From IMG/VR virus record IMGVR_UViG_2648501669_000004, positions 1-4,791 of that record: 4,791 nt of DNA. One strand, written 5' to 3'. How positions within the stretch are numbered: the first letter of the stretch is position 1; each line of letters begins with the position of its first letter. Positions 584 through 1,058 of the stretch are shown here, in pieces. The stretch is from a virus (taxonomy: Duplodnaviria > Heunggongvirae > Uroviricota > Caudoviricetes). The notes under the pieces are model-generated. The model saw nothing but the letters and a program-made list of their open reading frames with translations. It searched no databases and had not been told where the DNA came from. The position numbers and the translations under genes are program-made.

Positions 584-978
584 TGAAAAATGAAGTCGAC
601 AATGTTATCACCCTGGTACAGCCAAAATCAGAGGAGGAAGGACTCCTCAACGTTGTGATAACCGACAGAAAAAGCGGCGAGCAAAAATGCTGTCAGCATA
701 TCCGTACAACAATTTCAGAAGTGAATCGTACGATTACCTGTAACCGATGCGGATTGGCTTTAGATCCGTTCGAGCTTGTTCTCGAGCGTGCGAGAAACGG
801 TGAAAACATAGTGTCTGAGATAAAATCACTCTATGCAAAGCGGGATGCTCTTCGTGAAGCTGTGGCAAAACTTGAACGTGAAGAGAAAAACGCCAAAGCC
901 CGGTTACGAGCAGCCAGGACAGCAATACTGTATGCGGAAAATGACCTTAAAAATATTGAGCAGGAGGTGAATCGATGA
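583..978 (+). CDS. Hypothetical phage protein with N-terminal Cys cluster (possible zinc ribbon) and C-terminal coiled-coil-like region
   Basis: 131-aa ORF. GGAGG at 571-575 sits 7 nt before ATG 583. Contains CCQH...CNRCG Cys cluster and a charged heptad-like C-terminus (REAVAKLEREEKNAKARLRAAR). No family recognised. Confidence 0.6.
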   Translation: MKNEVDNVITLVQPKSEEEGLLNVVITDRKSGEQKCCQHIRTTISEVNRTITCNRCGLALDPFELVLERARNGENIVSEIKSLYAKRDALREAVAKLEREEKNAKARLRAARTAILYAENDLKNIEQEVNR

Positions 979-1058
979 CCTGGCCTGAGGCATTCACTAC
1001 AGTAGGAATTGCGATGGCGGTGGCGCTGGTGGTGTATTCGATTTGCCGATGGGGATAA
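975..1058 (+). CDS. Candidate 27-aa single-pass membrane peptide (MTWPEAFTTVGIAMAVALVVYSICRWG)
   Basis: Hand-translated; below the ORF-track size cut-off. ATG 975 overlaps the upstream stop (ATGA). AGGAGG at 962-967 sits 7 nt upstream. The peptide has a hydrophobic core (VGIAMAVALVVYSI) followed by basic/aromatic RWG. Stop TAA at 1056-1058. Confidence 0.35.
   Translation: MTWPEAFTTVGIAMAVALVVYSICRWG

Follow-up and report, generated by a model that had tools for sequence, protein, structure and literature searches.

A conserved 27-codon reading frame of lambdoid prophages that probably encodes a small membrane peptide

Small membrane proteins regularly escape gene finders, and a reading frame of only 27 codons that stands directly upstream of a toxin locus raises the question of whether it is a gene at all and, if so, whether it belongs with its neighbour. 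Such a frame is present in a 4,791 nt stretch (the window) comprising positions 1 to 4,791 of IMG/VR record IMGVR_UViG_2648501669_000004, a virus of the Caudoviricetes. The window is part of a lambdoid prophage, and the frame, referred to here as the small open reading frame (ORF), lies ahead of hokD. The initial annotation of the window had proposed that the small ORF is a translationally coupled gene for a genuine small membrane protein, belonging either with the toxin locus or acting as a separate small effector. From the analysis described below, the small ORF is very probably a genuine protein-coding cistron overlooked by standard annotation, specifying a membrane peptide and independent of hok/sok.

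Coding signature and predicted membrane peptide

The predicted 27 amino acid (aa) product of the small ORF, MTWPEAFTTVGIAMAVALVVYSICRWG, was used in a tblastn search of 50,697 phage records. Matches were found in 94 records, 92 of them full length, with 59-100% identity, and at least 487 relatives were confirmed in IMG/VR. A collection of 334 intact copies was taken from these matches and from two further pattern scans; the patterns demanded an intact start and end, and the first six and last three codons are constrained by this search design. The copies comprise 31 peptide variants and 68 distinct 84 nt DNA sequences, with the exact peptide of the window encoded by 25 different DNA sequences. 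When changes were counted by parsimony on a tree of the 68 sequences, limited to interior codons 7-25 that no search pattern constrains, codon positions 1, 2 and 3 had 51, 35 and 124 changes, respectively (chi-square p=1e-14). The pooled Nei-Gojobori ratio of nonsynonymous to synonymous differences per site (pN/pS) is 0.32 in the frame of the ORF, compared with values of 1.06 and 2.06 for the remaining frames on the forward strand. The initial annotation had named conservation of the frame with a synonymous bias as a way to check its call, and both the full-length matches in 92 of 94 phage records and the excess of third-position changes bear it out.

Frame integrity was also determined in a sample drawn with a 17 nt anchor in codons 3-8 only, for which an intact frame was not required. 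Among 126 distinct homologous contexts, 120 are intact, made up of 115 with an ATG start and 27 aa, two of a 24-aa form, two with a GTG start abutting TAA and one with an in-frame 6 nt deletion. The six damaged contexts include two frameshifts in codon 2, one loss of the start, one nonsense mutation at W26, one truncation and one loss of the stop. Frame-breaking copies, which were to count against the call, are hence rare. Individually, copies L378 and L400 carry a 1 nt deletion in codon 2, L394 carries the W26 nonsense mutation, and the stop loss in L411 leads to a 40-aa product.

The translation signals predicted at the outset were all found in place, namely a 27-aa ORF from ATG 975 to the stop, an AGGAGG with ideal spacing and a start overlapping the preceding stop. 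The Shine-Dalgarno sequence AGGAGG is at 962-967, inside the 3′-end of the upstream 131-aa gene and separated from the ATG by a 7 nt spacer, and the ATG (975-977) overlaps the TGA (976-978) of that gene as ATGA (975-978). An ORF of 27 codons is by itself no more than chance in a window where the ORF list holds 83 ORFs of at least 20 aa. The window has two occurrences of the arrangement AGGAGG-N5-9-ATG, where shuffles predict 0.12 and only 2 of 200 shuffles reach two. Both occurrences are stop/start overlaps, one at the start of the 131-aa gene (570-585) and the other at the small ORF (962-977). Across the family, a Shine-Dalgarno core of at least 4 nt precedes 329 of the 334 copies, 233 of which have AGGAGG. 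The start overlapped or abutted the stop of the preceding gene in every context inspected, as ATGA, TGATG, TAATG or TAA-GTG, and it did so behind the unrelated upstream genes of ArgO145, TH18, VT1-Sakai, 933W, PhiR12, SJ46 and L344/L380.

A frame that is conserved incidentally, within a DNA or RNA element such as a recombination linker, a 3′ untranslated or terminator element, or an antisense transcript or ORF, would need no protein product. Short conserved junctions do occur at gene boundaries in the window, where CAGGAGGTGAA-N3-4-ATG is found at both 568-585 and 960-977, and the antisense frame that shares its wobble positions with the small ORF is mostly open. However, the third-position bias and the 25 synonymous versions of a single peptide speak for a protein, and neither strand folds better than shuffles (minimum free energy z-scores of 0.77 for the + strand and 0.30 for the - strand), while Rfam has no match over the small ORF. 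The minus-strand ORF at 997-1137 was rejected as coding since its frame has a pN/pS of 2.48, and in the window the wobble-coincident antisense frame has no ATG, GTG or TTG until a TTG at 925, which is beyond the ORF. An element without a product is therefore highly improbable. Given the third-position bias, the pN/pS values, the integrity of the frame and the lack of an RNA element signal, we conclude that purifying selection acts on the peptide.

Relative to the upstream gene, the small ORF is read in the -1 frame, and rare database proteins (P0022-P0026) fuse upstream genes to the peptide, as would be expected if it were a C-terminal membrane anchor attached to the upstream protein through a -1 frameshift immediately ahead of the stop. 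Against this, a TGA at 957-959 closes the peptide frame and the 15 nt from there to the ATG include no slippery heptamer, and a programmed frameshift fusion was rejected on these grounds. Furthermore, the fusions represent frameshift variants, each comprising 1-11 member sequences, the upstream genes are mutually unrelated, and the Shine-Dalgarno sequence and ATG are conserved ahead of the ORF, making an anchor of this type scarcely credible.

The peptide includes a predicted transmembrane core (Table 1) with a mean Kyte-Doolittle hydropathy of 2.11 over residues 6-24, the best 19-residue window, and ranks third in hydropathy, behind mok/hok, among 85 ORFs of at least 20 aa called with our own script. 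The family consensus is M-[S/T/N]-W-P-[E/D]-A-[F/I/L]-x3-G-x3-A-x5-[Y/F]-S-I-C-R-W-G. W3, P4, A6 and W26 are invariant, though this is forced by the search patterns. Among the 30 peptide variants that have 27 residues, G11 is found in 29, R25 in 28, C24 in 27 and A15 in 26; conservation peaks at both ends of the peptide, and nearly every replacement exchanges one of A, V, I, L, M, F, T, G and S for another. Both the hydropathy and the replacements that conserve hydrophobicity, together with the signature of selection, are consistent with the genuine small membrane protein that the initial annotation suggested. A lipoprotein signal peptide was considered and rejected. The lipobox consensus is [LVI][ASTVI][GAS]C, and in the small ORF product C24 is preceded by Y-S-I and followed by only three residues.

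In-frame expansions of a 6 nt unit (GCGATG or GCGGTG), equivalent to 1006-1023 in the window, were seen in proteins P0036, P0037 and P0039. They add 2-8 residues to the helix, as in ...GIAMAMAMAMAMAVALVV..., and suggest a slippage-prone repeat inside the transmembrane segment. The expanded versions have been picked up by gene callers because they are longer than 30 codons.

Several observations weigh against a selected membrane peptide. Conservation is not on one face of the helix, as the moment of 0.096 is reached by 6559 of 10000 shuffles. The conserved face G11xxxA15...S22 was dropped as evidence for this reason, and without clustering on a face no claim of a packing interface is made. The charge bias that would set the topology is weak, consisting of one acidic residue (E5) and one basic residue (R25). 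The wobble-coincident antisense frame has a pN/pS of 0.36 and is open in 65 of the 68 DNA sequences; this is most probably the expected mirror effect of a GC-rich region encoding hydrophobic residues, with coding in the antisense frame the less likely reading. Most copies were collected with patterns requiring intact ends, which constrains the terminal codons by design, and a few damaged copies exist, including one in phage POCJ13 in which codon 3 is changed from TGG to TGA. Finally, the peptide string does not occur in the supplements of PMC5597208 and PMC11188072, an enterohaemorrhagic E. coli Sakai ribosome profiling paper and a survey of Enterobacteriaceae microproteins (preprint), although this is uninformative as the files may not list sequences. 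The POCJ13 copy (L007), from a Shigella phage, lies at 1201-1284, where a 42-aa ORF was called by its annotators on the opposite strand.

Relation to hok/sok and mosaic context

The small ORF ends 42 nt upstream of the Rfam sok/hok unit (1058 versus 1100), so that its placement immediately upstream of the hok promoter region in the initial annotation was correct. This proximity, and the recurrence of the same junction in 55 copies, would be accounted for if the small ORF were part of the hok/sok module, either as a third component or as an upstream regulatory frame for the hok promoter. Yet hok is downstream in only those 55 of 334 copies, and the other 279 have different neighbours, among them a DUF4222 gene, terminators, an opposite-strand toxin-antitoxin pair and xis-int. 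Strain W60 has a hokD locus that is homologous to the window only from approximately the stop of the small ORF onwards, with unrelated sequence further upstream, and in other genomes the left edge of the hok module is within a few bases of the same stop codon. In the Qin prophage of K-12, relE rather than the small ORF precedes hokD. The small ORF is outside the Rfam model, and its peptide has no match to the Hok/Gef Pfam family. Consistent with this, a query consisting of 583-1270 detected matches, mostly via its hok part, in 4310 of 5426 complete E. coli genomes, while the small ORF alone was found in 1468, and most hok loci in E. coli genomes are not accompanied by it. Membership of the hok/sok module is already largely refuted and must be considered very improbable. 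Judged by its boundaries, the small ORF is an independent module outside the adjacent hok/sok system. Of the two options offered initially, a place within the toxin locus does not stand, whereas a separate small effector agrees with the 55 of 334 copies that precede hok and with the boundary at the stop codon.

Between copies of the small ORF, homology is confined to the stretch from the ATG to the stop. When flanks were classed at 75% ungapped identity, at least 28 upstream sequence classes, mostly Ea22/DUF551-type genes, and 29 downstream classes were distinguished. In the window the peptide is preceded by a coiled-coil gene, while the identical peptide in ArgO145 follows an unrelated 114-aa gene. 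In TH18 the small ORF follows an EaA-type gene, in the P1-like phage SJ46 a phrog_2814 gene, and in VT1-Sakai, PhiR12 and many others DUF551/Ea22-type genes with the ending ...HWMPLPEPPQEV. Downstream, a DUF4222 gene starts 5-7 nt past the stop in 148 copies, the hok promoter follows in 55 and another gene in 52. The remaining neighbours include an intrinsic-terminator-like hairpin with a T-run, an opposite-strand toxin-antitoxin pair and xis-int, and terminator-like hairpin/T-run sequences follow the stop in some contexts only. The small ORF is thus, by all appearances, a separate mosaic cistron bordered by its own start and stop. It was also considered as a phage moron and rejected, as the sequences upstream are the coding 3′-ends of unrelated genes and include no conserved promoter. 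No promoter-like site was found in the window between 850 and 1600.

The features of the window are listed in Table 1. The hok/sok-type locus is complete within positions 1100-1512.

Table 1. Features of the 4,791 nt window at and around the small ORF.
Feature	Position	Strand	Basis or remark
DUF551 gene	50-583		Pfam, E=2.3e-22
131-aa gene upstream of the small ORF	583..978	+	phrog_1621; PHROG match, E=7e-48
Small 27-codon ORF	975..1058	+	ATG start; stop TAA at 1056-1058
Predicted transmembrane core, residues ~6-24, AFTTVGIAMAVALVVYSIC	990..1046	+	Hydropathy; flanked by W3 and W26
hok/sok unit	1100-1275		Rfam RF01794 (sok/hok model), 121.7 bits
mok-like frame	from 1213		ORF list
hokD	1270-1425		hok/sok-type locus in the window
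Terminator-like hairpin	1495-1512		Downstream of hokD
DUF968 gene	ends at 2924		Pfam profile search
ORF	2926-3306		By position, the RusA gene annotated in GF31
ORF	3303-4124		By position, the Q gene annotated in GF31

Positions 583-1270 of the window are 100% identical to the chromosome of E. coli GF31. The gene order there is a cI-like repressor, cro, YdaT, a hypothetical gene, a DnaC fragment, a DUF551 fragment and a hypothetical 131-aa gene, followed by hokD, and beyond hokD are a hypothetical gene, DUF968, RusA and the antiterminator Q. Despite the identity over 583-1270, the genes annotated downstream of hokD in GF31 are offset by ~300 nt relative to the ORFs of the window, which indicates that the source of the window is another mosaic relative rather than GF31 itself. 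The 131-aa protein is annotated as a hypothetical protein in GF31, and phrog_1621 is of unknown function. This protein is itself a mosaic. Its last ~43 codons, from ~850, are common to L0139 of phage 933W and predict a coiled-coil-like tail, and its N-terminal half has a CxxH...CxxC motif with weak, sub-threshold matches to a Cas12f zinc ribbon (TNB).

The CAGGAGGTGAA junction is located at the ends of both the DUF551 gene and the 131-aa gene, and as a result both proteins end in ...QEVN(R). It also terminates most of the DUF551/Ea22-type genes that precede the small ORF elsewhere. The junction looks like a shared linker for the exchange of gene modules that also supplies the ribosome-binding site of the next cistron.

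Distribution and annotation

The small ORF was detected at 2384 places in the 1468 E. coli genomes that carry it (~27% of the 5426), with up to six per genome, and 10 of these places are on plasmids. It is present in the reference Shiga-toxin (Stx) phages 933W, VT2-Sakai and VT1-Sakai, and in 933W (AF125520) it lies on the complement at ~58829-58909. A strict degenerate DNA pattern gave 12 matches in representatives of one genome per species, of which four are true (two each in E. coli and Shigella flexneri) and eight are chance matches that are out of frame or not hydrophobic. One database protein carries a Salmonella label, SJ46 is a Salmonella phage-plasmid, and a 24-residue version is found in P1-like phage-plasmids. 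In the K-12 MG1655 prophages DLP12, e14, Rac, Qin and CPS-53, tblastn gave only chance matches at E ~0.1, one of them in emrE.

The small ORF is unannotated in the four RefSeq genomes and in the phage records inspected, as the initial annotation had stated. This does not extend to GenBank as a whole, where a few submitters have called the exact peptide as a 'hypothetical protein' or 'bacteriophage protein' (AOM45384.1, ASL59396.1 and others, on 79 contigs); the statement thus stands for RefSeq/PGAP and for the phage records but fails for these calls. Searches of Pfam, NCBIfam and PHROGs gave only sub-threshold matches (phrog_4612, E=0.019; DUF883_C, E=0.042; KdpF, E=0.024), and PADLOC and the PDB had nothing for the peptide. 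A search with four concatenated peptide variants recovered eight proteins, all of them rare frameshift or read-through fusions. In an exhaustive phmmer scan of 1.84 billion representatives with a 32-residue read-through translation, there were 25 matches, nearly all from the close family, and no distant relatives or longer homologues. A full-text literature search with substrings of the peptide found no paper, and no such ORF is mentioned in the part of a review of phage small proteins covered by a term search. On current sequence evidence the small ORF therefore represents what appears to be a narrow family of the lambdoid prophages of Escherichia and Shigella.

At 84 nt the small ORF falls below common annotation length cut-offs. 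The comparative evidence is strong enough to justify adding the gene, and the outcome is a correction to annotation together with a functional candidate in the accessory regions of Stx phages. These are the exo-xis, ea and nin regions, where genes affect how Stx phages lysogenise and are induced. If a membrane-active product has been overlooked there, it could confound deletion or overexpression studies of its neighbours, for example ea22/DUF551. Absence from the five K-12 MG1655 prophages checked would explain the silence of K-12 small-protein surveys and makes K-12 a clean background for tests.

Possible role and comparison with known systems

The cistron would owe its transcription to the early operon that hosts it in each case, of which it would form the distal part, because it has no conserved promoter of its own and the upstream sequence differs completely between copies. 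In the window, this operon stretch would lie between the replication genes and the nin/Q genes. The conserved arrangement of signals suggests that ribosomes ending the 131-aa gene at UGA 976-978 would reinitiate at AUG 975-977 with the help of the AGGAGG, by classical termination-reinitiation coupling. The product, as predicted from its sequence and conservation, would be a single transmembrane helix of ~19 residues bracketed by Trp3 and Trp26. Insertion into the inner membrane would most likely leave the acidic N-terminus (E5) outside and R25 inside, though the positive-inside argument is weak. During infection or induction, the peptide may then pack against an inner-membrane protein of the host or the phage and act in this way, rather than serve as an enzyme or pore. 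This is modelled by analogy on KdpF, AcrZ, MgtS or SidA, and, provided that the cistron is real, we regard it as an even call.

Modulation of a partner is preferred here, as a guess, over direct perturbation of the membrane. More specifically, and only tentatively, the peptide could be an effector that binds one particular host inner-membrane machine and alters superinfection exclusion, the timing of host shut-down or the lysis-lysogeny and induction behaviour of lambdoid prophages, a proposal that is possible but doubtful. Its targets may include a component of the divisome or elongasome, a sugar phosphotransferase system or other channel for phage DNA entry, or a sensor kinase. If this were true, the small ORF would be an unnoticed member of the exo-xis/nin accessory set in ~27% of sequenced E. 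coli, with a bearing on the Shiga-toxin phages 933W and Sakai Sp5/Sp15.

Alternatively, the peptide could be a toxin that damages the membrane in the manner of type I toxins or holins, depolarising or permeabilising the inner membrane when the early operon is on and thereby contributing to host shut-down or death. The peptide resembles TisB (29 aa), DinQ (27 aa), ShoB (26 aa) and Ibs (19 aa) in size and composition, it adjoins another membrane toxin, hok, and expression tied to lytic early transcription would tolerate toxicity. However, its Ala-, Gly- and Val-rich helix is not amphipathic, and the best-conserved residues are at the two termini and do not form a pore-lining stripe. Neither Pfam nor PADLOC gave a toxin match. 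No conserved flank is available to carry the gene for an antisense RNA, and such an RNA would have to lie wholly inside the 84 nt, where the antisense strand folds with z=0.30. The strong Shine-Dalgarno sequence and translational coupling are also unlike the occluded initiation of type I toxins, and a toxin of this kind is considered unlikely.

In either case, the small ORF specifies an uncharacterised phage/bacterial membrane micropeptide and not a new biological principle, and it can be set beside several known groups. Small single-pass inner-membrane proteins that bind larger partners include KdpF (29 aa), MgtS (31 aa), CydX (37 aa), AcrZ (49 aa) and YohP (27 aa). The predicted peptide has in common with them a length below 50 residues, one hydrophobic helix and short polar ends with interfacial aromatics, and, like them, it is missed by gene finders and would be a distal, translationally coupled cistron of an operon, as is often the case in that group. 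It differs in having no sequence relationship, with the KdpF model reaching only 14.7 bits against a cutoff of 26.85, and in being borne on mosaic prophages and not in the chromosomal core. Its helix, moreover, has no conserved face.

Type I toxin peptides, such as Hok/Gef (50 aa), TisB, DinQ, ShoB and Ibs, are likewise small and hydrophobic with a single helix, and in the window the small ORF adjoins a hok/sok locus. Unlike them, the small ORF is outside the hok RNA unit, has no Hok/Gef Pfam match, and lacks conserved flanks. In place of repressed initiation, its Shine-Dalgarno sequence is strong and exposed and its translation would be coupled to that of the upstream gene.

SidA of Caulobacter (29 aa) and Blr of E. 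coli (41 aa) are small membrane peptides acting on the divisome. The likeness to these is by analogy only, and consists of the size class, the single transmembrane helix and expression that would be linked to a DNA-damage or induction programme. There is no homology, and a cell-division effect is not in evidence for the small ORF.

The closest comparison in location is with the accessory genes of the exo-xis/ea/nin regions of lambdoid phages, which include ea22 (with a C-terminal DUF551 domain), ea8.5, orf60a, orf61, orf63 and orf73 (PMC7093339, PMC10834534, PMC10789677). In the portions of these three papers considered here, the small ORF is not among the genes named, and a term search of PMC10789677 returned no transmembrane or small-protein ORF for the exo-xis region. 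The small ORF shares with these genes its neighbourhood, presumably early transcription and a mosaic distribution, and it usually follows an Ea22/DUF551-type gene. It is set apart from them in that the proteins named are not described, in the same portions, as membrane proteins, whereas the product of the small ORF is predicted to be embedded in the membrane.

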